DNA of 64,000 bases from Candidatus Omnitrophota bacterium (lineage in GTDB: Bacteria; Omnitrophota; Gorgyraeia; Zapsychrales; JANLHA01), in assembly GCA_020632535.1 (NCBI GenBank), contig JACKFJ010000001.1, forward strand, positions 346,890 through 410,889. The letters run 5' to 3'. The notes below the pieces were generated by a model. It ran no database searches and was not told the DNA's origin. It saw nothing but the letters and a program-made list of their open reading frames with translations. Positions 34,202-51,567 of this stretch are shown one piece after another. The number at the start of each line of letters is the position of its first letter. The stretch's first letter is position 1. Position numbers and translations under genes: made by a program.

Positions 34202-35300
34202 TGACATTATTTTGAGTTTAAAACGAAACATCGAAGCCATTGGACGTTTGCTCTGGGAAAAAGATCTTGTTACAGGTTTGAATGGAAATATCAGCACGCG
34301 TTTGAGTGATGAAAATATTTTAATTACCGCAACCAAAACGTGTTTAGGCCTATTGCAGGAAAATGACATTGTTGAATTAGACTTGGAAGGCAATGTTGTT
34401 GGCGATGGTCAGGCTTCTAGTGAGCGCCTGTTGCATGTCGCAATTTATAAGGCATTTCCAGAAATGAGCGCGGTGGTGCATACGCACACGGCGTATACCA
34501 ATGCTTATTTTCTTGAGAATGACAGTTTGACGCCGCGGATTTTTGAATCCAAATTGTATTTAGGTGATGTCAGCGCGGTCCCGCAATTGACGCCCGCTGT
34601 TTCGGATGTTGGGCCGGTTCTTGAAGCTCTTAAGTCCAACAGTATTGTTGTGTTAAAAAATCATGGTGTTGTCGCGATGGGAAAAGATTTGTTTGATTGT
34701 TTTCTTCTTGTGCAGTGCTTGGAAGAGGCGGTCAAGATTGACGCGATTAGCCGTTTGTATCATCGTTTTACAGATGTCAATGATTTGAAACCTTCTTTGA
34801 AGATCGGGAAACCTGAAGTCGCCAGCAAAAAAGTTGAACCTAAGGTTAAGAAATTGCCAGATTCTTTCTCGCAAGAGGAGCTTGATTCAACTGCAAAGAT
34901 TTCAGAAAGTCCGGTGGTGCCTAAAAAATTTAAACTTTTTTCGGGTGAACAGATTGGTGAAATTGTCCGTTTGGTTAATGCTGATGTGCAAATGCAAGAT
35001 CTCGGCAAGAAGACAAAAATGACGATGTCTTTGGCCGTTAAACTCAATGAGACCGGTGAGGTGTTTTGTTTTCATTTTGAAGATGGGCAGATTATTGAAA
35101 TTGATAAAGACAAAGAGCCCGAATTTTTAATTTCCGCGCCCGAAAATATTTGGCGCGCGGTGTTTAATCGGCAAATTGATCCATTTGTCGCGACAACGCA
35201 AAAGAAAATGCACTTGCAGGGCGATTTCGCTAAGATTTCCAAATGGTATGCGCCGTGCAGTCGTATTTTTGAACTTTGGGCACAGGTTCCAATCGAATAA
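34188..35300 (+). CDS. class II aldolase/adducin-domain protein fused to a C-terminal SCP2-like lipid-binding domain
   Basis: N-terminal part: GLNGNISTRL, ASSERLLHVAIY, AVVHTHT (Zn His ligands), LKNHGVVAMG. C-terminal part: EFLISAPENIWRAVFNRQIDPFVATTQKKMHLQGDFAKISKW resembles the SCP2 C-terminal pattern. Confidence 0.75.
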   Translation: MQMNNDIILSLKRNIEAIGRLLWEKDLVTGLNGNISTRLSDENILITATKTCLGLLQENDIVELDLEGNVVGDGQASSERLLHVAIYKAFPEMSAVVHTHTAYTNAYFLENDSLTPRIFESKLYLGDVSAVPQLTPAVSDVGPVLEALKSNSIVVLKNHGVVAMGKDLFDCFLLVQCLEEAVKIDAISRLYHRFTDVNDLKPSLKIGKPEVASKKVEPKVKKLPDSFSQEELDSTAKISESPVVPKKFKLFSGEQIGEIVRLVNADVQMQDLGKKTKMTMSLAVKLNETGEVFCFHFEDGQIIEIDKDKEPEFLISAPENIWRAVFNRQIDPFVATTQKKMHLQGDFAKISKWYAPCSRIFELWAQVPIE

Positions 35301-36803
35301 ATGACAACGATCAAAACACAAATTCAGGAATTTAAGTTTTCTGTCAACGGCAATTTACGCCATGGCCGTGACGGAAAGTTCTTTGACTGTGTCAATCCTT
35401 CGACGGGTGACGTGTTTGCGAAAGTCGCGGATGCTAGCGTAGAAGACATGAAAGACGCGATCGCCAGCGCGCGTTACGCTTTTGACTGTGGCGAGTGGTC
35501 GGGTTTCAAACCCGAGGACCGTGGAAAATATTTAGCACAATTTGCAAATTTGATCCGGGAGAACGCCAAACTTCTCGCGGAATTAGAAATGCTTTCGACC
35601 GGCAAGACTTTAAAGCACACGACCTTTATCGACGTGCCGACTTGCGCGGATACATTTGAGTATTTTGCTGGTGCCGGTGCTCTTTTAAATGATGTGCCCA
35701 ATCCCGTTTCGGGTCCGGTTAAAAGTGTGACAGCGTATGAGCCGATGGGTGTTGTTGGGAGTATTATTCCGTGGAATTATCCCCTGATTATGCTGGCGTG
35801 GAAAATCGCGCCGGCACTTTTAGCAGGCAATACCGTTGTGTTAAAACCGTCGTCGTTGGCGAGTGTGTCGATCGCAAAATTTGCCGAAATCATTGAGCAA
35901 GCCGGTTTACCCAAGGGCGTTTTAAACATCGTAACAACAAGTCGCCACGAAGTGGCTGAAGTACTCGTGAAAAGTAAAAGTGTTGATATGATTAGTTTTA
36001 CCGGCGGCACCGAGACAGGTAAAGAGATCATGAAAATGTGCAGTGAGACGACAAAAAAACTTTCTTTAGAGCTCGGCGGGAAATCGCCGACAATTATTTT
36101 TGAAGATTGTGACTTAGAAACCGCTGTCGGCGGCACAATGTCCGCGATTTTTATTAATCAAGGACAAATGTGCACGGCGGGTTCACGACTTTTGATTGAT
36201 GAAAAGATTGCCGAGCCATTTTTGCGGCTGCTTGTCGAGAAGACAAAAAGTTTAAAAATCGGCCCCGCGACGAGTTACGAAACGGATTTTGGCCCATTAA
36301 TTAACGTCGCGCATCGCGATAAAGTTTTAGAGTGTATTAAAAAAGGTATCAAAGAAGGCGCGGTGGTTTTGTGCGGCGGTAAAATTCCCGAATCGGAAGA
36401 ATTAAAAAGTGGTGCGTACATTGAACCGACGATTTTAAGCAAAGTCAATAATCAAATGACCGTCGCGCGGGAAGAAATTTTCGGACCGGTTTTGGTGGTC
36501 ATGAAATTTAAGGATGAGGACGAAGCTGTTTTGGTCGCCAATGATTCCTCATACGGTTTGGCGGCGTCAGTATGGAGTAAGGATTTAGTAAAGGCAAATC
36601 GTGTCGCGAAAAAATTGCAGTGCGGCACTGTGTGGATCAATACATACGGCGCATTTTTTAATGAAGCCCCTTTTGGGGGATATAAGCAAAGTGGATTTGG
36701 GCGGCAATTGGGTCTTGAGGGTTTGTTGGCCTACACACAATCCAAACATATCTGCATTGATCAAACTCCGGGAGGTCGTCCGCTTGTTGCGGCATGGTTC
36801 TGA
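35301..36803 (+). CDS. NAD(P)+-dependent aldehyde dehydrogenase
   Basis: PWNYPL, FTGGTETGK, LELGGKSP (catalytic Glu), NQGQMCTAGSR (catalytic Cys) and EEIFGPV. Confidence 0.9.
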   Translation: MTTIKTQIQEFKFSVNGNLRHGRDGKFFDCVNPSTGDVFAKVADASVEDMKDAIASARYAFDCGEWSGFKPEDRGKYLAQFANLIRENAKLLAELEMLSTGKTLKHTTFIDVPTCADTFEYFAGAGALLNDVPNPVSGPVKSVTAYEPMGVVGSIIPWNYPLIMLAWKIAPALLAGNTVVLKPSSLASVSIAKFAEIIEQAGLPKGVLNIVTTSRHEVAEVLVKSKSVDMISFTGGTETGKEIMKMCSETTKKLSLELGGKSPTIIFEDCDLETAVGGTMSAIFINQGQMCTAGSRLLIDEKIAEPFLRLLVEKTKSLKIGPATSYETDFGPLINVAHRDKVLECIKKGIKEGAVVLCGGKIPESEELKSGAYIEPTILSKVNNQMTVAREEIFGPVLVVMKFKDEDEAVLVANDSSYGLAASVWSKDLVKANRVAKKLQCGTVWINTYGAFFNEAPFGGYKQSGFGRQLGLEGLLAYTQSKHICIDQTPGGRPLVAAWF

Positions 36804-36900: not shown

Positions 36901-38388
36901 ATGAAAGTTCTATTTTTAACACCACCGCTAAAAGCTTGGGATTCACATGGAGATCACAAAGCCGCCAATCAAATGCACGCGCAGCTTGCCGCCTATTTAC
37001 GTGAAAAAAAATTAGCTGAGGTTGCTGCTTTGGATTGCCGCGCCTTGGACATGACATGGGAAGACATGATTAAGGAAGTTGCTAAAATCAAGCCGGGTCT
37101 CGTTTTTGTCGGAGAGCTTTTGCATTCGACATGCGGGGCGGCCGTTATTGGTTATTTTAACGATGCTTTAAAGTTAATAAAAGAGTACGACAAAAATATT
37201 AAAACAGTGGCTGGCGGACTTTGGTATTCGGGCGACTATGATCGGCAAATGCGTTTAAATCCGTGGATCGATTATATCATGATCGGTGAAGCCGAATTGA
37301 CATTAGAGGATCTCTTGATCAATTTTCGTGATCAGAAAAAAGATGAAAAGGACATTCCCGGCCTTGTTCATCGCGATGCTCAGGGAACGATCGTAGTTGG
37401 GCCGCATCGGGACATGATTCCTGATCTCAATGTTTTGCCGATGCCAGCTTATGATCTTTTTCCGATGGAAAAATACGTTGGCCATACGTATTGGAAACCA
37501 TTCGCGGAGCTTATGACATCGCGCGGCTGTCCGGGCAAATGCCATTTTTGTTACGAATGGGCTTTGTATGATTCGCGCACGGCCGCAAAAGATTTTACAT
37601 CATGGCGCGGATTAAAAGGTAAGCGCATTGTTGATGAATTAGATCTTCTCGAAAAAACTTACGGTGTGACAACAATCGTCTTTCAAGATGACGCCTTTAA
37701 CACCGACACCGCGGCGATGATTGAGTTCTGCGAAGAAAAATTAAAACGTGGTAATAAAATTGACTGGGTGTGTTTAGGTCGTGCGGATCAATGGATTCTT
37801 CAGCAAGACATTTTGCCACTCATGAAAAAGGCGGGACTATTTCTTGCCTTGACCGGCGTTGAGGTTGAGGACGATTTGAGTTTACACAAAAGTGGAAAAG
37901 GGATAACGATTGCGCAGATTAAAAAAACCGTCGATATCTTGCGACAAAACGATATTGGATCCGTCGGAACAGTTTTGATTGGGCTTAAGGAGGACACCGA
38001 AGCAAAAATTAAAGAGCGTTTGCGAATTGCTGATGAAATTGACCCCGATGTGTTCGCGCTTGATTATTTAACACCAGTTCCTAATTCACCGGACTGGAGA
38101 TACGGGATTAAAAAGGGTTGGTTTGATCCCGAAAAAATTGATCTAAAGACTTGGGATTTTCAACATCCGGTTATCCCGACTGACTTTTTAACAGTTGAAG
38201 AAGTCGGACGTTTAGGGGCGTGGTGTATGCGTGAATATTATTCCAAGCCAGAGAGAATTCATCGCATTTTTTCCAGCAACTATGACGAAAAAGTCAAGTT
38301 ATGCGTTAAGGACTTCATGGCGAATATTGCCAAATGGGAAGCTAACTCGCGCATGCCAGCGACAACAGGCATCGCCGTAAATAAGTAA
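36901..38388 (+). CDS. B12-binding-domain radical SAM enzyme (class B rSAM)
   Basis: N-terminal cobalamin-binding-like domain (MKVLFLTPP...). Radical SAM cluster motif SRGCPGKCHFCYEW (CxxxCxxC). RBS aaggag. Confidence 0.85.
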   Translation: MKVLFLTPPLKAWDSHGDHKAANQMHAQLAAYLREKKLAEVAALDCRALDMTWEDMIKEVAKIKPGLVFVGELLHSTCGAAVIGYFNDALKLIKEYDKNIKTVAGGLWYSGDYDRQMRLNPWIDYIMIGEAELTLEDLLINFRDQKKDEKDIPGLVHRDAQGTIVVGPHRDMIPDLNVLPMPAYDLFPMEKYVGHTYWKPFAELMTSRGCPGKCHFCYEWALYDSRTAAKDFTSWRGLKGKRIVDELDLLEKTYGVTTIVFQDDAFNTDTAAMIEFCEEKLKRGNKIDWVCLGRADQWILQQDILPLMKKAGLFLALTGVEVEDDLSLHKSGKGITIAQIKKTVDILRQNDIGSVGTVLIGLKEDTEAKIKERLRIADEIDPDVFALDYLTPVPNSPDWRYGIKKGWFDPEKIDLKTWDFQHPVIPTDFLTVEEVGRLGAWCMREYYSKPERIHRIFSSNYDEKVKLCVKDFMANIAKWEANSRMPATTGIAVNK

Positions 38389-38398
38389 AGGGAATGTA

Positions 38399-38686
38399 AT
38401 GACAACGACATTTATCAAAATGCATTGGGATCCAAAAACCGAAGAATTGTTTTTGGCCACGATCAAAAAGATTCCGCTTTTTCATCGGGACATCGCCCGC
38501 GAAGTTGTGGAAAAAAAGGCACAGATTAACGCGCAGGCGCGAGGATCGACTTCGGTCGAAGAAAGCGATGTCGTCGATGCGTTTTTCTCGGAAGTTCCCA
38601 AAGCATTCTATAGTTTAATGGTCCGAATTTTAGATGAGGCAGGTTTAGATTATGGCAAGCATATTTCCGCGCAAGGCAAAAAGTAA
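38399..38686 (+). CDS. small PCP_red-like (protochlorophyllide-reductase C-terminal-domain-like) protein
   Basis: W-x5-E-x8-KIPLFHRDIAREVVEKKAQINAQARGSTSVEESDV follows the pattern I recall for PF08369 proteins that accompany BchE-type rSAM enzymes. Confidence 0.45.
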   Translation: MTTTFIKMHWDPKTEELFLATIKKIPLFHRDIAREVVEKKAQINAQARGSTSVEESDVVDAFFSEVPKAFYSLMVRILDEAGLDYGKHISAQGKK

Positions 38687-39143
38687 AGACACGATTCTTC
38701 ACGAGTTTATGTTTTTGGAAGCACCAATTGAGGCTGTTTCCGCAGAACTGATCGCATGGGGCGAATCTACTTGGTGGCCGCAAGATTCATTGTGGAAATA
38801 TATTCGTCAGACCGACGGACCTGTCGCGGTTGGGACGCAATATGTAATTAAGATTAACAAAAAGTCCGCACCGGATTGGGCCGCGGAAGTCACTCAGCTT
38901 TTACCAAATCGTGTGATTGAAAGGACTTTTACCAAGGGTCTTTTTAAAGGTTTTGAACGCATCATGATGGAAGAGCGCGCCAACGGAACGCGTGTTGATT
39001 ATGAATTGCATTTTCAAATTCGCGGTCCGTTAAATCTGATTCTTTGGCCTTTGGTTTTGCGAAAGCAGTATGTCTCAACGATTAAGACAACACTTGACGC
39101 GTTGCGAAATTTTTTAATTGCGGAAGCCAAAAAGCATTTGTAA
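38652..39143 (+). CDS. SRPBCC/START-fold protein (polyketide_cyc2-like); start uncertain (alternative ATG 38709)
   Basis: About 150 aa in the alpha/beta pattern of the SRPBCC superfamily (IEAPIEAV...W...TQYVIKI...RVIERT...VDYELHF). Start 38652 overlaps the upstream gene by 35 nt. Confidence 0.55.
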   Translation: MASIFPRKAKSKDTILHEFMFLEAPIEAVSAELIAWGESTWWPQDSLWKYIRQTDGPVAVGTQYVIKINKKSAPDWAAEVTQLLPNRVIERTFTKGLFKGFERIMMEERANGTRVDYELHFQIRGPLNLILWPLVLRKQYVSTIKTTLDALRNFLIAEAKKHL

Positions 39144-39160
39144 AGTTGGAGTCATTCAAA

Positions 39161-40159
39161 ATGAAAATTGCTGTGATCGGAGCCGGAGCCATTGGATCAG
39201 TTGTCGCCGCGGGATTGTTCAAATCCAACGTCGACGTTCTGCTGGTTGGACGGGCTGATCAAGTCGCAGCCATTAAGGAACGGGGACTGACAATAAAGCG
39301 TTTTGATGGCACTGAAACGCTTAATGTTCCGGTAGCAGAGCGCTTGGATCGTGAATTTGATCTGGTGATTTTTACGACAAAAACGCAGGATGTTGATGAT
39401 GCGTACATGCAAAATTCAGAGTTTATGGAAAATTGTCTGGTGTTGGCGACACAAAACGGGGTGCAGGGAGACAATATTTTAAGTCCACATTTTTTCCCGG
39501 AACGCGTGATAAGCAGTATTGTGATGTTTGGCGCGACCTATGTTAAGCCCGGCGAAGTCACTTACAATTTTCCGGGTGACTGGATTATTGGCAAACGTTT
39601 TGTGATGAATGATATTAAAGTCCATGAGATTGCGGACATTTTAAAGAAAAGTTTTTCGGTTGAAGTGACTGACAATATATTAGGGATGAAATGGTTAAAG
39701 CTTTTCGTTAATTTTAATAATTGTATTCCGGCCTTGATCGGCAAGTCGATGCAGGAAACTTTTACCGATATGGATTTGTGCCGCTTGAGCGTCTCACTTT
39801 TAAAGGAAGCCTTGCCGATTGTACAGAGCGCTAATATCAAACTTGTGTCATTGCCGCAATTTCCTGTTGAGCGGGTGCAAGGCTTAGCGGCCATGCCATT
39901 AGAACAAGGCGCTGGCATTATGAATAAGACATTGACGGGATTAAGCAAAGAGCCGCTTTATGGGTCAATTCTACAAAGTATTTTGCGTGGCAAGACCAGT
40001 GAAATTGATTTTATTAATGGGGAAGTTGTGGCAATCGCATCAGGAATGAGAATGGATGCTCCACTTAATCGTAAAGTTGTGCGTATGGTTCACACCGTTG
40101 AAGAGACGGGAAAGTTTTTTTCAGCAGAAGAAGTTAAAAAGGAATTTAGTTTGGTCTAA
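39161..40159 (+). CDS. 2-dehydropantoate 2-reductase family (ApbA/PanE-like) NAD(P)H oxidoreductase
   Basis: MKIAVIGAGAIGS Rossmann start. LVLATQNG, KLFVNFNNCI and EIDFINGEV match the KPR family. Confidence 0.8.
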   Translation: MKIAVIGAGAIGSVVAAGLFKSNVDVLLVGRADQVAAIKERGLTIKRFDGTETLNVPVAERLDREFDLVIFTTKTQDVDDAYMQNSEFMENCLVLATQNGVQGDNILSPHFFPERVISSIVMFGATYVKPGEVTYNFPGDWIIGKRFVMNDIKVHEIADILKKSFSVEVTDNILGMKWLKLFVNFNNCIPALIGKSMQETFTDMDLCRLSVSLLKEALPIVQSANIKLVSLPQFPVERVQGLAAMPLEQGAGIMNKTLTGLSKEPLYGSILQSILRGKTSEIDFINGEVVAIASGMRMDAPLNRKVVRMVHTVEETGKFFSAEEVKKEFSLV

Positions 40160-40163: not shown

Positions 40164-40251
40164 CTGTCATCCCCGAATGTTCGTATCGGGGATCTATAGT
40201 TTATGGATTCCCGCTTAAAGATAGTAGCCTTCGGCTATAGGCGGGAATGAC
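40164..40251. repeat. family-A palindromic repeat element, copy 1 (inverted orientation)
   Basis: ctgtcatccccga...tcggggatc hairpin plus ggattcccgc...gcgggaatgac hairpin. Termini are tgtcat.../...atgac. Confidence 0.8.
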
Positions 40252-40270
40252 CTGAGGGATGGAGTTTTAT

Positions 40271-41527
40271 ATGGCACGACGAGTCGTAGTTACTGGTATC
40301 GGAATTGTTTCACCCAATGGCGTCGGTAAAGAAGCCTGTTGGAAAAGTATGATCAATGGCGTGTCGGCGGTTAAACGTGTGACCGAGTTTGATGTGACAC
40401 CTTTTAATACCAAAATTGCCGCGCAGGTCAGAGATTTTGATCCTGTCATGTTGGGCTTGACGTGGGAAGAAAGTATGCGCATGGATCGCTATGTGCAGTT
40501 TGCGGTTGTCAGCGCGCGTATGGCCCTAGAAGATTCCCATTTGAATTTGAGCAAAGTTAATCCCCAGCGAATTGGTGTTTCTCTTGCCAACGCGATTTGC
40601 GGGACCAAATATATGGAAGAGGAATTTGCGCTTGTGACCGACAGCGGCAAAAATCCAATTAATCCCGCGATTGTTCGCCCTGATCTTTATGACGCGGCGA
40701 TGTTTAATACACCGTCGAGCGAAATTTCCGCGAAGTATGGACTTAAAGGTGTTTGCAATACGATCTCGACGGGTTGTACTGCGGGAACTGATTCGGTAGG
40801 GTTTTCGTTTGAAACGATTATGGATGGCGATGCGGATATTATGGTGACCGGTGCGGCCGAAGCCCCGATTACCCCGATCACATTTGGCGCGTTTGATACC
40901 GTCAATGTTCTTTCAGCGATGAATGAATTTCCAGAAAAAGCGTCTCGTCCTTTTGATGCGAAGCGCAATGGTTTTGTCATTTCTGAAGGCGCAGGTGTTC
41001 TCATTCTCGAAGAATTACAACATGCCAAGAAGCGTGGCGCACGGATTTATTGTGAAGTCGTTGGTTTTGGGACGACCAACAATGCTTTTCATATGACGGA
41101 TTTACCTCCGGATGGCGACGCGATGGCCGATTGCATTAATATTGCGATGGATGAAGCAAAAGTCAAGCCACAAGACATCGATTATCTTAATGCCCACGGT
41201 TCCTCGACGAGGCAGAATGATGTTTTTGAAACGAGCGCGTATAAAATGGCTTTAGGAGATCACGCGTACAAAATTCCAATCAGTTCGCTTAAGTCGATGA
41301 TTGGCCATCCCTTGGCTGGCGCCAATGGTTTGGAACTTGCCGTTGGATGTATGATTTTTGAACGTAATATTTTGCCGCCGACAATCAATCAAGAATTTCC
41401 AGATCCACAATGTGATTTAGATTATATCCCCAACGTGAGTCGTGAAAAGAAAGTTAATGTCATGTTAAAAACTTCGAGCGGTTTTTCGGGGATCCACTCG
41501 GCCATGGTGTTAAGAAGATTTGAATAA
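40271..41527 (+). CDS. type II polyketide synthase ketosynthase alpha (KS-alpha)
   Basis: RRVVVTGIGIVSPNG. TISTGCTAGTDSVG with the Cys codon at 40775-40777. EAPITPITFGAFD, ASRPFD, FHMTD, NAHGSST, PDPQCDLDYIP and SSGFSGIHSAMVLRR. Collinear with actinorhodin-type KS-alpha as I remember it. Confidence 0.9.
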   Translation: MARRVVVTGIGIVSPNGVGKEACWKSMINGVSAVKRVTEFDVTPFNTKIAAQVRDFDPVMLGLTWEESMRMDRYVQFAVVSARMALEDSHLNLSKVNPQRIGVSLANAICGTKYMEEEFALVTDSGKNPINPAIVRPDLYDAAMFNTPSSEISAKYGLKGVCNTISTGCTAGTDSVGFSFETIMDGDADIMVTGAAEAPITPITFGAFDTVNVLSAMNEFPEKASRPFDAKRNGFVISEGAGVLILEELQHAKKRGARIYCEVVGFGTTNNAFHMTDLPPDGDAMADCINIAMDEAKVKPQDIDYLNAHGSSTRQNDVFETSAYKMALGDHAYKIPISSLKSMIGHPLAGANGLELAVGCMIFERNILPPTINQEFPDPQCDLDYIPNVSREKKVNVMLKTSSGFSGIHSAMVLRRFE

Positions 41528-41561
41528 AATGAGCGATATATTTTATAAAATGGAGTTTTAA

Positions 41562-42794
41562 ATGCAGCCTATTGCGATTACCGGTATCGGTTTAGTTACA
41601 CCCAGCGGGATTGATAAAAGAAAGTTTTGGTCGAATATTGTCCATGGCCGATCCGTCATTAAGAAAATTGATCGTTTTGACGCATCATTATATGAATCTC
41701 ATATTGCCGGACAAGTGCATGAATTAGACGCATACAGCAATGTCTCCTCGCGGCTTTTAAAAAAGATCGATTTATTTTCGCATATGGGTTTGGTCGCCTC
41801 CGAAATCGCGATCACTGACGCTAAGCTAGATCTTGCGCAAGAGAACTTGAAACGCGCTGGTATTTTTATGGGTAATGCCATTGGCGGTTGGCTCTACGCC
41901 GAAACCGAATTGCGTGATTTGTATCTAGAGGGAAGAGAAGGCGTAAGCCCATTTATGGCCTCCGCGTGGTTTCCCGCCGCGCCGCAAGGTCAAATTTCCA
42001 TTCATTACGGCATTAAGGGCTACAGCAAAACCATCGTCGCTGATCGAGCGAGTTCTCTGATGGCCATCGGCTATGGCGCAAAAAATTTATTGCGCGGCAA
42101 AAACGACTTTATTCTTGCCGGCGGCATGGAGGCGCCTGTCACACCGTACGCGCTTTTGTGTTGCAACACATCGGGGTGTCTTTCTTCTAATAATGACGAA
42201 GCCGAAACCGCGTATCGGCCGTTTGATAAACAACGTGACGGGTTTGCCATTGCTGAGGGCGCGGGAATTTTGATTTTAGAACCACAAGAGCGTGTCAAAT
42301 CGCGCGGTGCACATGTGTATGGCAATATTATTGGTTTTGCGACGACGACAGATGGTGTGAATCGTATTGAACCTGCGACGGACGGTGTGGAATTGGCCCG
42401 CGCGATCAAAATGGCTTTGGATGATGCCGGCCTTGCGCAGAAAGATATTGATTATATTTGTGCCGACGGTGCGGGCGGACTTTTAAGCGATATTTCTGAA
42501 ACCAAGGCGATCAAATTAGTCTTTGGTGATTACGCTAAAAAGATCCCAATTTCAGCGCCCAAAGCCGTTTTCGGAAATATGTTAGGCGCGTGCGGCGCGC
42601 TTGATGTGATAACGACATTGTTGGCGATGGAGCATGACCTTATTCCACCGACGATTAATCTCAAAATGCCTGACCCACAATGTGATTTAGATTATGTTCC
42701 CAATGAAGCGCGTGCCAAAGTTATAAAAAATGCGATGGTCATCAATCGCGGCCGCGGCGGCATCAATTGCGTTTTAGTTTTGCAGAAACCTTAA
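41562..42794 (+). CDS. type II PKS ketosynthase beta / chain-length factor-like subunit (catalytic triad absent)
   Basis: KS fold (IAITGIGLVTPSG, AWFPAAPQGQISIHYG). TIVADRASSLMAIG replaces the Cys motif, with Arg codon CGA at 42045-42047. TTDGV replaces HMTD and CADGAGG replaces NAHGSST. PDPQCDLDYVP is retained. Confidence 0.85.
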   Translation: MQPIAITGIGLVTPSGIDKRKFWSNIVHGRSVIKKIDRFDASLYESHIAGQVHELDAYSNVSSRLLKKIDLFSHMGLVASEIAITDAKLDLAQENLKRAGIFMGNAIGGWLYAETELRDLYLEGREGVSPFMASAWFPAAPQGQISIHYGIKGYSKTIVADRASSLMAIGYGAKNLLRGKNDFILAGGMEAPVTPYALLCCNTSGCLSSNNDEAETAYRPFDKQRDGFAIAEGAGILILEPQERVKSRGAHVYGNIIGFATTTDGVNRIEPATDGVELARAIKMALDDAGLAQKDIDYICADGAGGLLSDISETKAIKLVFGDYAKKIPISAPKAVFGNMLGACGALDVITTLLAMEHDLIPPTINLKMPDPQCDLDYVPNEARAKVIKNAMVINRGRGGINCVLVLQKP

Positions 42795-42884: not shown

Positions 42885-43115
42885 ATGTCAGTTGAAGAGC
42901 AAGTCAAAGCTGTTTTTAAAAAAGTCCTTGATATCAATCCATCCGAAATCAAACCCAATGAACAGTTAGGCGCGTCATTAGGCATTGATTCAACGGAATT
43001 AGTTGAGATTTCCGTCGGGATCAAAAAGGAAATTGGAGTTGCGTTAGCGGATAGCGAACTTAAAAAATCACACACATTTAACGAAATCATCAAAATCATT
43101 GAGTCAAAGAAATAA
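42885..43115 (+). CDS. acyl carrier protein (PKS-associated)
   Basis: 76 aa, four-helix pattern, phosphopantetheine-attachment motif LGIDSTELVE. RBS aggagga. Confidence 0.85.
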   Translation: MSVEEQVKAVFKKVLDINPSEIKPNEQLGASLGIDSTELVEISVGIKKEIGVALADSELKKSHTFNEIIKIIESKK

Positions 43116-43245: not shown

Positions 43246-44043
43246 ATGATCATCGACCTTTCCTTACCTATCGACGACAAACTCGTCGAAACCCATGATG
43301 CCAAAATCGACCGCATTTCGCATGCACAAGGTGTTGAGCATTTTAATTGGGTTGTTATGAAAAATCAGCCCGGCGGTCAAGAACGTTTTGACAAAGGCGA
43401 GCGCGTCGCGACCAAAGAAGAAATTCCTGACGGCGAAATGTTATCACTCGAAATCGTTCATTCATCCGTTCATATGGGTAGTCACGTTGACGCGCCGTTT
43501 CATTATGGCAGCACATGCGAAGGCAAGCCTGCCAAGCAAATTATGGATGTTCCGCTTGAGTGGTGTCTTGGTCCCGGTGTTGTTTTAGATTTTACCCACA
43601 TTCAATTTCCCGCCGCAATTGGCAAAAAAGATGTACAAGACGCTTTAGCAAAAATCAATTACAAACTAAAACCGATGGATATTGTTTTGCTTTATACTGG
43701 CGGTGACAAGTTGCTCGGCACAGATGATTATGTTAATAAATATGTCGGTTGCACAGTAGACGCGATTGAATATTTGCTGGATCAGGGTATCAAGATGATG
43801 GGTGTGGACACGATTGGTTTAGATCGGCCATGCTTTTTGATGTTTAAGGAATTTTTGACGACGAAAGATAAGAGTAAGATTTGGCCATGCCATTTCTTGG
43901 GTCGTCGTAGGGAATATTGTCACATGGAGCGCTTGGGAAATTTGGGCGCGATACCCAAACCATTTGGTTTTACGGTTTCTTGTTTGCCGGTTAAAGTTAG
44001 AAATGCCGGAGCGGGATGGAGCCGCGTTGTCGCGATTGTTTAA
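43246..44043 (+). CDS. cyclase-family protein (PF04199; kynurenine-formamidase / putative polyketide cyclase fold)
   Basis: The family motif HxGTHxDxPxH is present as HMGSHVDAPFH. Also MGVDTIGLD. Confidence 0.75.
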   Translation: MIIDLSLPIDDKLVETHDAKIDRISHAQGVEHFNWVVMKNQPGGQERFDKGERVATKEEIPDGEMLSLEIVHSSVHMGSHVDAPFHYGSTCEGKPAKQIMDVPLEWCLGPGVVLDFTHIQFPAAIGKKDVQDALAKINYKLKPMDIVLLYTGGDKLLGTDDYVNKYVGCTVDAIEYLLDQGIKMMGVDTIGLDRPCFLMFKEFLTTKDKSKIWPCHFLGRRREYCHMERLGNLGAIPKPFGFTVSCLPVKVRNAGAGWSRVVAIV

Positions 44044-44061
44044 TTTATGGAGGATTCGCTG

Positions 44062-44565
44062 ATGTTTAAAAAATTAATATTAGGTATGTTTATTTTTCTT
44101 TTGACGAGTGTAGCGTCGGCGGATGTTTTGGTGTTTAAATCAGGAAAGACTGTTGAAGGACTTATCACTAAAGTCACCGAAACAGGTATTACCTTTCAAT
44201 CAGGGAATGATACTTTAGGCGTAAGCTATACGCAAATCAAGGATATCCGTGAATCGACTGGGCCGAATGCAAGAAATAGTCCCCATATCGCGATAGCCCG
44301 AGGAGACGGTGTTTCGCAAGCGAGTGCTGGGACTCAAACAAAAAAAGTGGTTGTGTATATGACAAGTTGGTGTGGGTATTGTCGAAAAATGACCGCTTTT
44401 TTAAAGCAAAATGGAATAGCTTACACTGCGCATGATATTGAAAAGAATGATATGGCCAAGAAGATGTATCAAAAGTATGGTGGACAGGGTGTTCCTCTTG
44501 TCATTGTTGGCGAGAAGGTCATTCGTGGTTATAATCCTGATGGCGTTGTTGCCGCGTTGCGATAA
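44062..44565 (+). CDS. exported glutaredoxin/thioredoxin-fold protein
   Basis: Signal peptide MFKKLILGMFIFLLTSVASA. C-terminal VVVYMTSWCGYCRKM (CxxC) ... GVPLVIVGEKVIRGYNP. An alternative upstream start exists at 44047. Confidence 0.7.
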   Translation: MFKKLILGMFIFLLTSVASADVLVFKSGKTVEGLITKVTETGITFQSGNDTLGVSYTQIKDIRESTGPNARNSPHIAIARGDGVSQASAGTQTKKVVVYMTSWCGYCRKMTAFLKQNGIAYTAHDIEKNDMAKKMYQKYGGQGVPLVIVGEKVIRGYNPDGVVAALR

Positions 44566-44573
44566 AGATAATT

Positions 44574-44852
44574 GTGAGTGAAGAAAATTATAAATTTAAT
44601 ATTCCTGACGAAATTTACGGTCAAGTCATCGATGGCATTGATTTGCAGATTTTAAGCTCGGACTCGGTGCGGATTATCGAAGCGTATGTAAAGCAGGAAG
44701 GGGAGCTAAGCGAAATTCAAGAACGGGTTTTACATCAATGCGAGCGTGAGCTTCAGGTAGTTATTCTTAAGACTGAAGGTAAGCTTCGTGAATATTTTAA
44801 GCAGGTTTTGCACGGCATCATGGATGTCATTAAAAAGTTGAAGCATATATAA
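44574..44852 (+). CDS. hypothetical protein (92 aa, GTG start)
   Basis: ORF only. Helical, acidic, no motif recognised. Confidence 0.4.
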   Translation: MSEENYKFNIPDEIYGQVIDGIDLQILSSDSVRIIEAYVKQEGELSEIQERVLHQCERELQVVILKTEGKLREYFKQVLHGIMDVIKKLKHI

Positions 44853-44867
44853 ACATTCGGAGGTCAG

Positions 44868-44907
44868 TTATGGGACACACACGTAATTCAATTGTTATCA
44901 GTGCACC
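44868..44907 (+). repeat. 40-bp direct repeat, upstream copy (duplicated RBS-proximal 5' end of the aromatase/cyclase gene)
   Basis: ttatgggacacacacgtaattcaattgttatcagtgcacc is identical to 45452-45491. Weaker similarity extends ~10 nt further upstream (cggag..ag). Creates a 16-codon stub ORF, 44870-44920. Confidence 0.9.
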
Positions 44908-44949
44908 TGATCGATTTTAATTTAGAACTATACCTCGAAAGGACATAAA

Positions 44950-45135
44950 ATGATATCTCCCAAAAAAGAAATGACAAAAATTATTGAACGACAGCCAGAG
45001 GACAGCTCGTATGACGAAATCCTTCGTGAACTTGCTTTTGCCCGAATGATTGACCGTGGACTAAGCGACTCCAAGGCTAAGCGTACAATTAGTAATGCGC
45101 AAATGAAACAAAGGATTGTTAAGTGGCAGAAATAA
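44950..45135 (+). CDS. type II antitoxin (ParD/RelB-like addiction-module component)
   Basis: 61 aa. SYDEILRELAFARMIDRGLSDSKAKRTISNAQMKQRI is the pattern of small antitoxins paired with ParE/RelE toxins. Overlaps the toxin start by 13 nt. Confidence 0.65.
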   Translation: MISPKKEMTKIIERQPEDSSYDEILRELAFARMIDRGLSDSKAKRTISNAQMKQRIVKWQK

Positions 45136-45425
45136 AGTGGACCAAAGAAGCGCAAACTTGGCTTAAGGATATCCATGATTATATCGCGCTTGAAAATGCG
45201 AAGGCAGCAGCCAAAATTATTGAAGAAATTTTTCAGAGGGCACAGATTTTAAAACGTTTGCCGGAGATTGGTTACAAATATGATCGTTACCCCAATGTTA
45301 ATATCCGTATTTTGCTTTACGGGCATTATCGTATCGCGTATTTGATTAAAAGGGATCACAATATTGATATTTTGGGTGTTTTTCATGGCGCGTTAGATAT
45401 TGATCGGTACATTCAAAAATCGTAA
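45123..45425 (+). CDS. type II toxin, RelE/ParE family
   Basis: 100 aa. IKWTKEAQTWLKDIHDYIA ... GHYRIAYLIKRDHNIDILGVFHGALD is the typical ParE/plasmid-stabilisation toxin layout. GTG start. Confidence 0.75.
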   Translation: MAEIKWTKEAQTWLKDIHDYIALENAKAAAKIIEEIFQRAQILKRLPEIGYKYDRYPNVNIRILLYGHYRIAYLIKRDHNIDILGVFHGALDIDRYIQKS

Positions 45426-45451: not shown

Positions 45452-45491
45452 TTATGGGACACACACGTAATTCAATTGTTATCAGTGCACC
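45452..45491 (+). repeat. 40-bp direct repeat, downstream copy (authentic 5' end of the aromatase/cyclase gene)
   Basis: Identical to 44868-44907. Confidence 0.9.
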
Positions 45492-45909
45492 GTATAGTTT
45501 GGTTTTCGACATTTCCAATAAGATTGAACGTTGGACAGAATTGTTCGGCGATGAATATGTGAGCGCCGAAGTTTTGGAACGCAAGGACAATGAAATTGTT
45601 TTTCGCTTAACCGACGACGAAAAAAAGTCGTGGGTTTCCAAACGATGGCTTTTTAAGGAACACAATCTCGCGTATGCGTCACGGTATGAGCCGATGTTTC
45701 CGTTTCGCTATATGAAAATTATCTGGCTGTATAACGAAACTTCCGAAGGCACGGAAATGATTTGGATGCAGGATTTTGCGATGGATGAAAAATTTACCAA
45801 ATTCACAGAGACACAGATTGAAGGCTTTATTAATGAGCATTCACAGCATAATATGAAAATATTTAAAAAGGTCATTGAGGCTGAGGCTAAAGTAACAGTG
45901 GACAAATAG
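45454..45909 (+). CDS. SRPBCC aromatase/cyclase (TcmN N-terminal-domain / WhiE-ORFVI-like ARO/CYC)
   Basis: TRNSIVISAPYSLVFDISNKIERWTELFGDEY ... SWVSKR ... FRYMKIIWLY ... GTEMIWMQDFAMDE parallels the TcmN ARO/CYC sequence as I recall it ([30 protein letters not shown] ... MRWVQEFDM). Confidence 0.8.
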   Translation: MGHTRNSIVISAPYSLVFDISNKIERWTELFGDEYVSAEVLERKDNEIVFRLTDDEKKSWVSKRWLFKEHNLAYASRYEPMFPFRYMKIIWLYNETSEGTEMIWMQDFAMDEKFTKFTETQIEGFINEHSQHNMKIFKKVIEAEAKVTVDK

Positions 45910-45910: not shown

Positions 45911-46100
45911 CCTGTCATTCCTGCAATCTTTTATCGGGAATCCATGAATATAAGTAATCCTGTCATTCCCGCAATCTTTTAGCGGGAATCCATGAATATA
46001 AGTGGATCCCCGATAGTAACATTCGGGGATGACATGTTGAATCATTCGGGGATGACATGTTGAATCATTCGGGGATGACATGTTGAATCATTGGGGATGA
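45911..46100. repeat. family-A repeat cluster, copy 4: a 48-nt unit x2, then a 23-nt unit x3.5
   Basis: cctgtcattcc(t/c)gcaatctttta(t/g)cgggaatccatgaatataagt at 45911-45958 and 45959-46003. attcggggatgacatgttgaatc at 46021-46043, 46044-46066 and 46067-46089, plus a partial attggggatga at 46090-46100. Confidence 0.9.
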
Positions 46101-47245
46101 GAAGGCTGGGAGTTTGTATTAGTAGTCGCAAAGTCACGTTTTTTCTTTTTTGTCTGGCGAATGTAACAATTTCGTTTAATTTTGCGGCTTTGGCTGCAGC
46201 AGTACCTCTGATGAGCAAGGGACTGCAGCAAAGCGAAAATGTTGTTTCTCAGATTTCCGCGTATTACATGATTCCATATGGAATCGGCGCGCTTATCTAC
46301 GCGCCTTTAGCGCGAATGATAAGCGTAAAGTGGATTCTCGCGGTCGCGATGGCGGTGTATGGAATTTTAAGTTTTGTTTGCGCGCTAAATTCGTCAATTA
46401 CGATCATTCTCGGAACTCGAGTTGTGATGGGTTTAGCGGCAGCGTGCGTAATTCCTTTATGTTTGATTTCAGTGGGAAGCATATTTGAAAAAGATGTTCG
46501 TGGCCGCATGGTCGGTTTATTTTTCTCGACGAGCTTTATCGCGTCTGTTGCCGGCATAGCTGTTAGTGGATTGTGTGATTGGCGCTGGCTGTTTATTGTG
46601 CCGGGCATTTTGGGTATTGTGACTGCCATTTTTATGGTATATGGCGCCCAAGCCATTCTAAAAGTAGGGCAGCTGCCCCCAGTTGATTATTTGCGAGTTT
46701 GGCGACAAAAGAGTGTCAGAAATATTTTGTTGTTTATTTTTGTGTTGAGCTTTTTGTATCACGGGATTCATAAATGGCTCGCGGTTTATTTACATCGTCA
46801 ATACGGATTAGAGCAGTGGGCCATTAGCGCGCTTTTTATTCTCATCGCGTTGACCGGCGCGGTTGGGCAAAATGTGGGCGGATATATCACGGATCATCTT
46901 GGCCGTCGTGTGGCGTGTTATTGGGGTGTGATGATTTTAGCGGCGGCGACCGTATTACTCTTCGGAAAATATTCTTTATTTATTTTAGCGGGTATTTTAG
47001 CGGTATTTTCGATGGGTTGGGCGCTTGGGCATAATGGGATTTCAACGGTTTTGACGGACTTTCCCGACGAGAACCGCAGCGAAATCGCCGGATTGAACTC
47101 CGCGATACGCTTTTTTAGCGGCGGCTTAGGGTTTTTTGTTGGTGGGCCGTTTGTCGAAAGGAACATTGCGCTCACGTTTTGTGGATTTGGCATTGTCATG
47201 TTTTTGTCTTCGTTTTTTGTTAAGAAAATTATACCGAAATCATAA
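46097..47245 (+). CDS. MFS transporter
   Basis: About 12 TM helices. MFS loop motif-like GRMVGLFF. The start (ATG 46097 or TTG 46091) lies inside the last degenerate 23-nt repeat. Confidence 0.8.
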   Translation: MRRLGVCISSRKVTFFLFCLANVTISFNFAALAAAVPLMSKGLQQSENVVSQISAYYMIPYGIGALIYAPLARMISVKWILAVAMAVYGILSFVCALNSSITIILGTRVVMGLAAACVIPLCLISVGSIFEKDVRGRMVGLFFSTSFIASVAGIAVSGLCDWRWLFIVPGILGIVTAIFMVYGAQAILKVGQLPPVDYLRVWRQKSVRNILLFIFVLSFLYHGIHKWLAVYLHRQYGLEQWAISALFILIALTGAVGQNVGGYITDHLGRRVACYWGVMILAAATVLLFGKYSLFILAGILAVFSMGWALGHNGISTVLTDFPDENRSEIAGLNSAIRFFSGGLGFFVGGPFVERNIALTFCGFGIVMFLSSFFVKKIIPKS

Positions 47246-47257
47246 AGGGGGAATGAA

Positions 47258-48031
47258 ATGGTTAATCTCAAGGGAAAGAACGCGATTATTACCGGAGCCA
47301 GCAAAGGGATTGGTAAGGCGGTGGCGATGCGCTTGGCCGAGAATGGAATTAATATTGCCATTGCTGCGCGTACCAAAGGACCGCTGGATGAAGCGGTCGC
47401 TGATATCAAAAGCAAGACTGGTGTTAAGGTTATTGGCATTGTGACCGATGTTGCCAAAATGGCAGATTTAGAAAATTTGGTAAATACAGCGATGAAAGAG
47501 TTTGGGCATATTGATATTCTTGTTAATAATGCGGGAGTTTCTAGCCAATATCTTTTCGAGAAGCAGCCGATCGAAGAATTTGAAAAACTTGTATACACCA
47601 ATTATCTTGGATATATCCGCATGATCAAATTGCTTATCGATCATTTTGTTGCCCGTAAAGGCGGCTCGATTATCAATATGGTTTCTGGATCGACGTTGGT
47701 TGATCCGATTCCGCGAACATTTTTAGTTTACAGTTCGCTAAAAGTTGGTTTGCGGGCGTTTTTAAAAGGCCTGTTTTGGGAAATGCGTGATAAGGGCATT
47801 AAGGTTACATCCATTTTGCCCGGTGTTGTCGATAGTGATTTGACGGGGCATTTGCAGGATATTACGACGGAACAAAAAGACCGGCTTATGTCGCCGCAAG
47901 CCGTCGCGGATATGGTGATGTTCGCTTTATCATGTCCGGCCAACAGTTGTCCACTGGAGCTTGCTGTCATTAATCAGCAGACGCCGTGGACCAAGCCCGT
48001 GATTGACTATGCTCAGGCACAGGCTAAATGA
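47258..48031 (+). CDS. short-chain dehydrogenase/reductase (possible polyketide ketoreductase)
   Basis: TGASKGIGKAVA (TGxxxGxG), NNAG, S...YSSLK (Ser-Tyr-Lys triad). RBS aaggggg. Confidence 0.85.
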   Translation: MVNLKGKNAIITGASKGIGKAVAMRLAENGINIAIAARTKGPLDEAVADIKSKTGVKVIGIVTDVAKMADLENLVNTAMKEFGHIDILVNNAGVSSQYLFEKQPIEEFEKLVYTNYLGYIRMIKLLIDHFVARKGGSIINMVSGSTLVDPIPRTFLVYSSLKVGLRAFLKGLFWEMRDKGIKVTSILPGVVDSDLTGHLQDITTEQKDRLMSPQAVADMVMFALSCPANSCPLELAVINQQTPWTKPVIDYAQAQAK

Positions 48032-48113
48032 GCACATGATTTACACGCGATAGCGACGTAAATCAGTAGTGCGAATTTATGCCGCCTAATTGGCGGCCAA
48101 ATAGGAGAGGGAC

Positions 48114-48347
48114 ATGGACAAAACCGTATTCGTATTTCCAAAAAACAAGTTTCAAGAAATTCGTGTCGGCATCCGCGAGTATAAGGGAAATGATTTGATT
48201 GATATCCGCACTTGGACGCTGACGCAGGGATCGGAAGAAATGGTTCCGACGGCAAAAGGTGTTTCGATTAATGTAAACCTGATCGCGGATTTAAAAAAGG
48301 CTTTAGAAGAAGTTGAGAGCGAACTAAAAAAGAATAAGTTGATCTAA
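48114..48347 (+). CDS. PC4/YdbC-like ssDNA-binding family protein
   Basis: 77 aa. EIRVGIREYKGNDLIDIRTW ... PTAKGVSI resembles bacterial PC4-fold (YdbC-type) proteins. Confidence 0.5.
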   Translation: MDKTVFVFPKNKFQEIRVGIREYKGNDLIDIRTWTLTQGSEEMVPTAKGVSINVNLIADLKKALEEVESELKKNKLI

Positions 48348-48350
48348 ATT

Positions 48351-49253
48351 ATGTCAGGTATTATTGATACCCATAGTCACTATTTTCCGCCAAAAATCGC
48401 GGAGAACACCGCCTTTTTTAAAGTCGGCTGGTCTGATCTTGATCGTCAGCTTTCGATGATGGATCAATGCGGTATCGAAAAAGCTGTTCTCCTTTATCCG
48501 ACGAGTGACGCGCATTTGAATATGGGCGGGTGGGGGAATTTAGCAAAGATTTATAATGAAGCGATTGGGTCGGTTGTTAAAAAATATCCCGATCGATTTG
48601 TCGGCGCGGGTATTTTGCCGCCGGACAATGTTGGTGAAGGTTTAAAGAATGTGATGGATTTGAATTTGAAAGTGTTGTCTTTAGCGTCGAGCTATGATGG
48701 AAAATATTTAGATGATGAAAAGTTTTTTTCTGTTTATGATTTTGCCGCAAAGGAAAATGTTGCCATTCATGTGCATCCGCAAATTATAAATCCTATTGGT
48801 GATGATCGTTTGCGTGATCCATTACTTACGCCTGTTTTGGGATATGTTTTTGACGTTTCGGTGTGTTTGGGAAAGATGATGATGGCGGGTATTTTTGACA
48901 CGTTTCCAAAAGCGAAATTTATCTTTGCGCATTATGGTGGTGTCCTTCCGGTGGTCAAAGAACGTTTTGACAACACATACCAGATGCTGCGTAAGCGCAA
49001 TTATGTTAAGGACTTAGGTCGCACTCCGGGTGAGATCTTTAAGAATTTGTATTTTGACACAAGCGGGTCAAAATCATTGGCTTCGTTACTTTGCAGCTTG
49101 GAAGTCACTGATAGTCAACACATTTTGTTCGGGAGCGATTATCCCGCCAATCAGGGTTTGGGCGAGTCAATTGATGTGATTCAAAATTCGGCGATTGCCG
49201 CAAGTGCGAAGAGTCAGATTTTACGTGATAACGTCGCGCAGATTATTAAATAA
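48351..49253 (+). CDS. amidohydrolase-2 (ACMSD-type metal-dependent hydrolase/decarboxylase) family protein
   Basis: IIDTHSHYFP (HxH), HVHP, FAHYGG and FGSDYP (terminal Asp) are typical of PF04909. Confidence 0.75.
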   Translation: MSGIIDTHSHYFPPKIAENTAFFKVGWSDLDRQLSMMDQCGIEKAVLLYPTSDAHLNMGGWGNLAKIYNEAIGSVVKKYPDRFVGAGILPPDNVGEGLKNVMDLNLKVLSLASSYDGKYLDDEKFFSVYDFAAKENVAIHVHPQIINPIGDDRLRDPLLTPVLGYVFDVSVCLGKMMMAGIFDTFPKAKFIFAHYGGVLPVVKERFDNTYQMLRKRNYVKDLGRTPGEIFKNLYFDTSGSKSLASLLCSLEVTDSQHILFGSDYPANQGLGESIDVIQNSAIAASAKSQILRDNVAQIIK

Positions 49254-49548: not shown

Positions 49549-51095
<1,547 letters not shown>

Positions 51096-51285
51096 CTTTT
51101 TTTTATCGTCGCAAGGCGAGAGAGAAGGAAAACCAGTCTTATGTGTACGGACAAACCATCAGTCAATTGATGGGAGTTTTAATTGAGTAAATGAAAGAGC
51201 GTTTTGGAGCAAATTGCTTCAAAACACTTGGCTAGTTTTATTTGGTAATGCAAAATCATGGGTTAGTTAGGGCCAAAATTTTCGG

Positions 51286-51362
51286 GGGCCCATAGCTCAG
51301 TTGGTTAGAGCACCGTCTTGATAAGGCGGGTGTCAGTGGTTCAACTCCACTTGGGCCCACCA
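51286..51362 (+). tRNA. tRNA-Ile (anticodon GAT), CCA encoded
   Basis: Cloverleaf by hand: acceptor gggccca/tgggccc, D arm gctc..gagc, anticodon loop ttGATaa, T arm agtgg ttcaact ccact, then a-cca. Confidence 0.95.
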
Positions 51363-51441
51363 ATTTTTCAGCGGTGATCGTTGCATATGTCGTGGTAATG
51401 CATTGCCCCACTGGAGAATCAACTTCACGTTGAAATAACTT

Positions 51442-51514
51442 GGGGCTGTAGCTCACCTGGTAGAGCACCTGCTTTGCAAGCAGGGGGTAAGGAGTTCGAT
51501 CCTCCTCAGCTCCA
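51442..51514 (+). tRNA. tRNA-Ala (anticodon TGC), CCA not encoded
   Basis: Acceptor ggggctg/cagctcc with the G3:U70 identity pair, anticodon loop ttTGCaa, T arm aggag ttcgatc ctcct. Confidence 0.95.
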
Positions 51515-51567
51515 CTTTTTCTATCAGTTAAGCTATAAAAATGATAAAAAGATCAATATAGAATTTT

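Follow-up and report, generated by a model that had tools for sequence, protein, structure and literature searches.

Does an arginine at the vestigial active site of a chain-length factor (CLF) tell how the polyketide made with its ketosynthase (KS) partner is started? The question is raised by a 64,000-nucleotide stretch of DNA from a Candidatus Omnitrophota bacterium (GenBank assembly GCA_020632535.1, contig JACKFJ010000001.1, positions 346,890 to 410,889 of the forward strand), referred to below as the window, in which an open reading frame (ORF) at 41562 to 42794 (+) encodes a putative CLF (KS-beta) of 410 residues. The original prediction, made from the letters of the window, held that this protein carries Arg162 where a KS has its nucleophilic Cys and canonical CLFs have Gln, and that its polyketide synthase (PKS) may for this reason not be primed by decarboxylation of malonyl-acyl carrier protein (ACP).

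Arg162 occupies the nucleophile position of a chain-length factor

When the CLF protein was compared with solved structures by phmmer, full-length matches were obtained to FabF (1e-92), the actinorhodin (act) CLF (1tqy_B; 3e-73), and AntE (6smo_B; 5e-69). In the comparison with FabF structures, the CLF segment 'IVADRASS' lay on FabF 'VTACATA' with no gap around Arg162. Alignment with the adjacent KS by MAFFT paired Arg162 with Cys169 of that protein ('STGCTAG'), also without gaps, and in a ten-sequence MAFFT L-INS-i alignment Arg162 shared a gapless column with Gln161 of the act CLF (1tqy_B). The act CLF sequence was identical to PDB entry 1tqy_B across residues 10-415. Thus, three independent alignments, each gapless here, agree in placing Arg162 (CGA, 42045-42047, +) in the column of the KS Cys and act CLF Gln161, beside Asp161 (GAT, 42042-42044), as had been proposed. 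Checked against the act CLF and the KS, the hand alignment behind that proposal was not shifted, and no Gln or Cys falls on CLF position 162.

The two catalytic His residues are also replaced. The first (FabF 'NAHGTS') corresponds to Asp302 (GAC, 42465-42467, +) in CLF 'CADGAGG', a site whose 'ADGAG' motif is common to the act CLF, and the second (FabF 'TGHLLG', KS 'IGHPLA') corresponds to Asn339 (AAT, 42576-42578, +) in 'KAVFGNMLGA', with the motif 'FGNMLG'. The earlier claim that both had been lost is confirmed, as is its use of 'CADGAGG' for one of them. The other site had been misassigned to 'TTDGV'; 'TTDGVN' pairs with FabF 'TGDAYH', whose His lies outside the catalytic triad.

The features expected of a CLF were present: both KS domains (PF00109, 2.4e-43; PF02801, 8.4e-27) of a thiolase-fold protein, no catalytic Cys, a broken Cys-His-His triad, an intact KS-alpha adjoining, and an ACP in the cluster. 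The canonical actinomycete Gln at the nucleophile position was absent. Because two accepted CLFs, AntE (Asp) and gloCLF (Arg), lack it too, Gln marks an actinomycete subgroup and not the CLF family. Moreover, the protein shares with the act CLF derived motifs that are not found in KS or FabF sequences, namely an acidic residue at -1, 'ADGAG' at the first His position, 'AWF' at 135-137, and 'RGR' at 396-398, and these speak for its membership of the CLFs irrespective of Gln. In a neighbor-joining tree, which carries no bootstrap support, the Cys-less homologs, the act CLF included, all separated from the KS and FabF sequences. Judged by these features, ORF 41562-42794 is a genuine chain-length factor and the predicted partner of the adjacent KS-alpha. 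The actinorhodin KS-CLF (1TQY) has the same fold, heterodimer logic, and motifs, and differs in having Gln161 for Arg, Arg for Asn at the second His position, and F/T/F in place of W/A/L at gatekeeper positions 109/112/116 of its CLF.

Arginine is invariant among close homologs and common in sampled CLFs outside the actinobacteria

Relatives of the CLF were present in 362 stretches of species-representative genomes, and the locus counts given here refer to the best 80 of these (68-91% identical), nearly all of them labelled Omnitrophota or, in ENA bins, 'uncultured Planctomycetales'. Asp161, Arg162, and Asp302 were invariant in all 174 CLF homologs of at least 65% identity, and Asn339 was replaced in a single one, by Tyr. 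Across the 80 species loci, Arg162 was encoded by all six Arg codons (CGC 29, CGG 24, CGA 10, CGT 9, AGA 4, AGG 4). Since the residue is invariant while all six codons occur, it is under strong purifying selection. Arg162 in this CLF is not a chance occurrence.

More distant relatives were sought among 1.8 billion cluster representatives, where identity fell sharply from the Omnitrophota CLF family to relatives at 45% or less, many of which carried Asp-Arg. Cluster look-up placed Asp-Arg relatives in Clostridium beijerinckii, C. puniceum, Ktedonobacter racemifer, Archangium violaceum, and deltaproteobacterial metagenome-assembled genomes (MAGs), and a profile search added relatives from cyanobacteria, Polyangia, Bacillota, and Nitrospirota. 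Among 105 Cys-less relatives from outside Omnitrophota, position 162 was occupied by Arg in 65, Ser in 14, Ala in 7, Ile in 5, Thr and Gly in 4 each, Lys in 3, and other residues singly, and position 161 was Asp in 87. None of the 105 had Gln at position 162, in a sample whose reach does not take in the actinomycete CLFs. Read at positions 161/162/302/339, the motif was DREH in gloCLF and the C. beijerinckii/puniceum CLF, DRHH in Ktedonobacter, DRDH in Archangium, Polyangia, and Bacillota, and DRDN in a deltaproteobacterial relative at 60% identity. In the sister group closest to the Omnitrophota CLF (Nitrospirota, ~55% identity), 13 sequences read 'DSNN' (Ser162 with Asn302).

The Omnitrophota CLF has the Asp-Arg dyad together with the 'AWFPAA' and 'N/S-R-G' motifs, and in the neighbor-joining tree, which gives no support values, it grouped with the C. 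beijerinckii/puniceum CLF, KrCLF, and gloCLF. Arg appears to be the usual residue of the non-actinobacterial, FabF-like CLF lineage and not a peculiarity of the Omnitrophota gene. Within this lineage, the 'G/A-Cys' of KSs typically seems to become 'Asp-Arg', and the actinomycete 'Glu-Gln' would be one variant among several.

The searches also brought up unusual proteins. The sister-group proteins P0302-P0326, from Nitrospirota MAGs and unlabelled metagenome sequences, have Asp-Ser with Asn at both His positions, and one member, P0308, has Asp-Cys with the same two Asn residues, that is, a Cys without the triad. The distant relatives included single-chain fusions of ~760-880 residues (P0122, P0125, P0138, and others) that join a Cys-His-His KS to a Cys-less KS-like domain; in P0125, this second domain carries Asp-Arg.

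No discussion of Arg at the CLF nucleophile site was found in the literature searched. The residue at this site is not mentioned in the Ktedonobacter paper, in which the minimal PKS of K. racemifer was expressed in E. coli, or in a 2026 preprint on KS evolution. For type II PKSs of Omnitrophota, the same literature yielded only a 2023 catalog naming Candidatus Omnitrophica among the phyla with KS-CLF, and the supplements of that catalog contain no Omnitrophica entry.

Arg162 does not indicate how the polyketide is primed

A decarboxylase role for Gln161 of the act CLF was reportedly put forward by Bisang in 1999. Mutagenesis by Dreier and Khosla in 2000 is said to have called this role into question, as reportedly did the act KS-CLF structure of 2004. 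Some actinomycete systems that are not primed with acetate likewise have Gln-type CLFs.

The only Arg-type system found with in vitro data is that of Gloeocapsa sp. PCC 7428, a relative of the thermorubin PKS. Its CLF, gloCLF, reads 'FVCDRASG' at the site (PMC11744666 supplement). When supplied only with holo-ACP, FabD, and malonyl-CoA, purified gloKS-CLF formed dodeca- and tridecaketides (C24 and C26), and these products gained 24 and 26 mass units with 13C3-malonyl-CoA, as fully malonyl-derived chains would (PMC11744666). Because its products were fully labelled with no starter added, gloKS-CLF self-primes by decarboxylation, and Arg at the CLF site therefore does not exclude decarboxylative priming. 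In its native setting, the same PKS is primed with salicylate by a cognate ANL ligase, and salicylate was also accepted by gloKS-CLF when this ligase was supplied (PMC11744666).

Other partners of active KSs also lack Gln. AntE, from the Photorhabdus anthraquinone PKS, is published as carrying Asp, not Arg, at the nucleophile position, and AntD-AntE initiates from malonyl-ACP. In the anammox lipid cluster, amxFabFmut carries Val/Thr at this position, and the amxFabF2/amxFabFmut heterodimer decarboxylates malonyl-ACP and initiates from it. Since the AntE, amxFabFmut, and gloCLF systems all initiate in this way, Gln is not needed for decarboxylative initiation. With Arg in 65 of the 105 relatives as well, the step from a missing Gln to a missing malonyl decarboxylation is not supported.

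These results bear directly on the explanation that Arg162 records a loss of CLF-assisted malonyl-ACP decarboxylation, leaving a PKS that is incapable of acetate self-priming and must use another starter, activated by the ANL ligase at 30405 to 31928. The gene context lends this explanation some appeal. The ligase is fixed in the cluster, with a PadR regulator before it in many loci, and behind it comes a module (phosphorylase, isomerase, aldolase, and aldehyde dehydrogenase) from which a short acid could arise. The cluster also has no KSIII or acyltransferase of its own: as originally noted, no priming enzyme of either kind is present among the annotated ORFs from 29.7 to 49.3 kb, and plsX, fabH, and fabD start at 60667, 61650, and 62761, past the rRNA operon. 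The Gloeocapsa PKS, moreover, is an Arg-type system that natively takes its starter from an ANL ligase. However, that same KS-CLF makes C24 and C26 chains wholly from malonyl units, and decarboxylative initiation persists with CLFs or CLF-like partners whose residue is Asp or Val/Thr. Arg is also widespread across dissimilar clusters, such as the clostridial one, where the 21 kb examined contain a KSIII but no ligase. Gln-type CLFs are found, as mentioned above, where priming is not with acetate, and the role of Gln161 has reportedly been disputed since 2000. We therefore regard a lost decarboxylation as unlikely.

Thus, Arg162 alone carries no information on the starter unit. The proposal that the ANL ligase supplies a non-acetate starter remains plausible in its own right, since the cluster always includes the ligase where contigs are long enough and since the Arg-type gloPKS is natively primed through such an enzyme; Arg162 lends it no support. 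The Gloeocapsa and Omnitrophota systems are both Arg-type, FabF-like, and non-actinobacterial, and both have a candidate or known starter-supplying ANL ligase. They differ in their other accessory genes and in the ligase itself, which activates salicylate in Gloeocapsa and is nearest to fatty-acid CoA ligase models in Omnitrophota (AMP-forming acyl ligase by Pfam; nearest NCBIfam model PRK06187, 456 bits against a cutoff of 476). The identity of gloCLF to the Omnitrophota CLF is ~40%, as judged from cyanobacterial DREH relatives and not from a score of the pair itself.

Arg162 may fill the vestigial active site

We favor, with some reserve, the explanation that the Omnitrophota protein is a catalytically dead, structural CLF of a FabF-like, non-actinobacterial aromatic type II PKS, in which Arg162 would serve as a plug and chains would be initiated in KS-alpha. 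Positions 162, 302, and 339 are those of the catalytic triad and hence are neighbors in every thiolase-fold KS. Arg162, together with Asp161, Asp302, and Asn339, would occupy the vestigial pocket as a charged, hydrogen-bonded plug and make it more rigid. The CLF would then act structurally, in heterodimer formation and in shaping the acyl tunnel, and initiation would occur at the intact KS-alpha site, whether through malonyl-ACP decarboxylation or from a starter that the conserved ANL ligase provides.

The residues at positions 162 and 302 tended to occur in matched pairs among the 105 relatives. Arg or Lys at 162 was accompanied by Asp or Glu at 302 in 49 sequences and by a non-acidic residue in 19, while other residues at 162 were accompanied by an acidic 302 in 9 and a non-acidic one in 28. 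Position 302 was therefore acidic in 49 of the 68 Arg/Lys cases and non-acidic in 28 of the 37 others, counts that are confounded by phylogeny. The sister groups differ at both positions, with Ser162 and Asn302 in Nitrospirota against Arg162 and Asp302 in Omnitrophota.

Several points weigh against a plug of this kind. Because 19 Arg/Lys sequences have a non-acidic residue (A, H, N, or S) at 302, an ion pair is not the whole explanation. No structure of an Arg-type CLF was among the PDB matches found by phmmer, and the argument for a buried site and for an Arg162-Asp302 contact draws on homology and on the phylogeny-confounded covariation. The heterodimer and the product of the Omnitrophota KS-CLF are likewise predictions from the genes, and the CLF/KS tree was built by neighbor joining without bootstrap support. 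Finally, gloCLF has E302/H339 where the Omnitrophota CLF has D302/N339, and its behavior in vitro may not transfer.

Arg162 could instead be active in the CLF pocket, where it might, for example, bind a carboxylate, whether from malonyl-ACP or an acidic starter, or hold a polyketide enolate. A dead subunit would then have acquired a new role. Such an activity would fit the absolute conservation of the residue under purifying selection, the standing of Arg as a classic carboxylate ligand, and the near-equal conservation of Asp161 (87 of the 105 distant relatives). Among close relatives, however, Ser, Ile, Thr, Ala, and Lys also occur at this position, and the CLF lacks both of the His residues by which true ketosynthases position malonyl. 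An active Arg162 thus seems to us decidedly unlikely, and a structural CLF with a filled pocket is the reading that we retain.

The CLF belongs to a predicted aromatic type II PKS

The KS-alpha gene (40271 to 41527, +; 418 residues) has its Cys169, His309, and His346 intact and ends 34 nt before the CLF gene. The string 'ATGGAGTTTTA' precedes the starts of both genes (40247-40270 and 41540-41561), with GGAG ~8 nt upstream of each. Because the first in-frame ATG of the KS ORF, at 40259, falls inside this ribosome-binding site, 40271 is the likely start. A 76-residue ACP with Ser36 in 'GIDSTE' (42885 to 43115, +; NCBIfam ACP models, 6.6e-11), which had been missed by an 80-residue ORF filter, follows the CLF and was found in 77 of the 80 loci; the KS-CLF-ACP order was kept in 77-80 of them. 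Downstream lie a PF04199 cyclase of the OxyN-type second-/third-ring family with the motif 'HMGSHVDAPFH' (43246 to 44043, +; Pfam 2.9e-29; in 76 of the 80 loci at a median of 85% identity) and a single-domain SRPBCC aromatase/cyclase of the WhiE/TcmN type (45454 to 45909, +; phmmer 1e-25 to 3tl1 and 3tvr, 6e-22 to TcmN 2rer). Aromatase/cyclase and ring cyclase genes thus accompany the minimal PKS, as in aromatic type II systems. On the family matches, the KS, CLF, ACP, OxyN-type cyclase, and TcmN/WhiE-type aromatase/cyclase are predicted to constitute a minimal type II aromatic PKS.

The interval between the two cyclase genes (44047-45425) contains a glutaredoxin-like gene, a 92-residue ORF, and a ParE toxin gene with a small ORF upstream (44950-45135). 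Matches at related loci were found for the glutaredoxin gene and the ParE gene in 1 of 80 each and for the 92-residue ORF in 7 of 80, so the interval looks like an insertion largely specific to this genome.

The closest comparison is with the clusters of C. beijerinckii and C. puniceum, published clostrubin producers and, like the Omnitrophota cluster's host, anaerobic organisms. The order KS-CLF, PF04199 cyclase, SRPBCC cyclase, and 300-residue Amidohydro_2 protein is the same, as is the Asp-Arg at the CLF nucleophile position (DREH). Identity between orthologs in the Omnitrophota and C. beijerinckii clusters was 48% for KS, 43% for CLF, 46% for the cyclase, 42% for the aromatase/cyclase, and 29% (1.8e-45) for the amidohydrolase, and the Omnitrophota KS paired with the clostridial KS in the neighbor-joining tree, which has no support values. 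The clostridial CLF, which is protein P0131 in our alignment and which we take to be ClrB on the strength of organism and context without a check against the deposited clr sequence, differs in having Glu at 302 and in keeping His at 339. The clostridial cluster differs in having a KSIII, two phosphopantetheinyl transferases, and CMD, DUF362, and DUF169 proteins, with no ligase, salvage module, or radical SAM gene in the 21 kb examined. In the literature, where the KS-CLF pair is named ClrA/ClrB, ClrB has been placed in an 'ancestral' non-actinomycete CLF clade.

The cyclases also speak against a lipid product. The KS pair could in principle be a FabF-like KS and pseudo-KS heterodimer for the synthesis of an unusual lipid, on the pattern of the anammox ladderane cluster, where FabF2/FabFmut forms a KS/CLF-like heterodimer. 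Both Omnitrophota proteins are nearer in sequence to FabF than to the act KS-CLF, three ORFs before the KS there is a gene for a B12 radical SAM enzyme, and 'ladderane' biosynthetic gene clusters have been reported in Omnitrophota by a metagenome study, a label that genome-mining tools sometimes give such clusters. Against this stand the WhiE/TcmN-type aromatase/cyclase (1e-25) and the OxyN-type cyclase, which are orthologous to clostridial aromatic PKS genes. In addition, the radical SAM protein scored 65.8 bits against the cutoff of 360 of the ladderane-type model TIGR04072 and was matched better by BchE and HpnJ, its gene is dispensable in two loci, and the cluster has no FabZ/FabI-type genes. 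With aromatic cyclases present and so weak a TIGR04072 score, the proposal that the KS pair and the radical SAM gene serve ladderane or lipid synthesis was rejected as highly improbable.

The PKS genes are part of a long conserved cluster with an unusual upstream module

Gene order was established from the 80 CLF-anchored loci and from those ligase-anchored loci (at least 55% identity) whose contigs are long enough to show it. The cluster begins with the PadR regulator, the ANL ligase (+; the candidate starter-activating enzyme), a nucleoside phosphorylase, an MtnA-like isomerase, a truncated isomerase copy, a class II aldolase-SCP2 fusion, and an aldehyde dehydrogenase. It continues with the B12 radical SAM gene, a 95-residue ORF (followed in the window by a less conserved ORF of 163 residues), an ApbA-family reductase, and KS, CLF, and ACP, and ends with the PF04199 cyclase, the WhiE/TcmN-type aromatase/cyclase, an MFS transporter, an SDR, and an Amidohydro_2 protein. 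In 13 of the 16 ligase-anchored metagenome loci at or above 55% identity the same genes lay downstream; the remaining three contigs stop at the ligase or inside it.

The five genes after the ligase (31912 to 36803, +), for the nucleoside phosphorylase, the MtnA-like sugar-1-phosphate isomerase, its truncated copy, the aldolase-SCP2 fusion, and a non-acylating aldehyde dehydrogenase, kept their order and offsets in 43-56 of the 80 loci and in the ligase-anchored loci that were long enough. The truncated IF-2B/MtnA-like ORF (33632-34201; 189 residues) comprises only the C-terminal half of its family; because it is conserved in 50 of the 80 loci, at ~44% identity, it is not a recent pseudogene. 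Next come the BchE/HpnJ-like, B12-binding radical SAM gene, the 95- and 163-residue ORFs, and the ApbA/PanE-family reductase gene (36901 to 40159, +). Neither small ORF had a significant family match in Pfam or NCBIfam. In two syntenic metagenome contigs, L093 and L098, the radical SAM gene is missing between the aldehyde dehydrogenase gene and the 95-residue ORF, which suggests that it encodes an optional tailoring step. The MFS transporter, the SDR ketoreductase-like protein, and the Amidohydro_2 protein are encoded at 46091 to 49253 (+).

The series of phosphorylase, isomerase, aldolase, dehydrogenase, and ligase resembles a dihydroxyacetone phosphate shunt extended to an activated C2 acid, a likeness offered purely as a hypothesis. 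In the window (31912-36803) and in loci L084-L098, the module resembles those acting on 5'-deoxyadenosine, methylthioadenosine, or ribose-1-phosphate. A reading of the PNP-family and radical SAM genes as part of futalosine/menaquinone synthesis was dropped, as the radical SAM protein is B12-binding and BchE/HpnJ-like and a sugar-1-phosphate shunt suits the IF-2B and aldolase genes.

A broader picture can be drawn in which the cluster would be near-housekeeping in Omnitrophota and no mere sporadic antibiotic cluster, its polyketide would be primed with an unusual two-carbon acid, and Asp-Arg would be ancestral to all CLFs, with Gln a later actinomycete invention. The first element is suggested by the relatives in 362 stretches, the 75-85% identity of the core cluster enzymes across the best 80 loci, and the position of the cluster beside an rRNA operon. 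For the second, a nucleoside or a radical SAM by-product would be converted by the shunt-like module into a C2 aldehyde, which the aldehyde dehydrogenase would oxidize, and the ANL ligase would load the resulting acid, for which glycolate, methylthioacetate, and acetate are candidates. Taken jointly, we think it improbable that the three elements all hold.

The rRNA operon is complete (16S, two tRNAs, 23S, and 5S; 49549-55585) and begins ~300 nt past the last cluster gene. Its 23S rRNA match (51657-55327) spans 3671 nt against a model of 2925 nt and contains a 185-residue LAGLIDADG homing-endonuclease ORF (53761-54318); the over-long match and this ORF together suggest that the 23S gene is interrupted by an intron or some other insertion.

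Implications for chain-length factors and for Omnitrophota

By its motifs and relatives, the Omnitrophota CLF appears to be a member of an already known non-actinobacterial lineage. The textbook view of the CLF as a Gln-bearing 'chain initiation factor' comes from actinomycetes, and the FabF-like CLFs sampled outside this group are mostly Asp-Arg. The prevalence of Asp-Arg bears on how chain initiation is divided between the KS and CLF subunits. It is also relevant to engineering, as it is these KS-CLFs from outside the actinomycetes that lend themselves to expression in E. coli. For annotation, the residue at the CLF nucleophile position is unusable as a predictor of the starter unit. For Omnitrophota, the cluster represents an uncharacterized aromatic polyketide pathway, with unusual upstream genes, in many species of an uncultured phylum.

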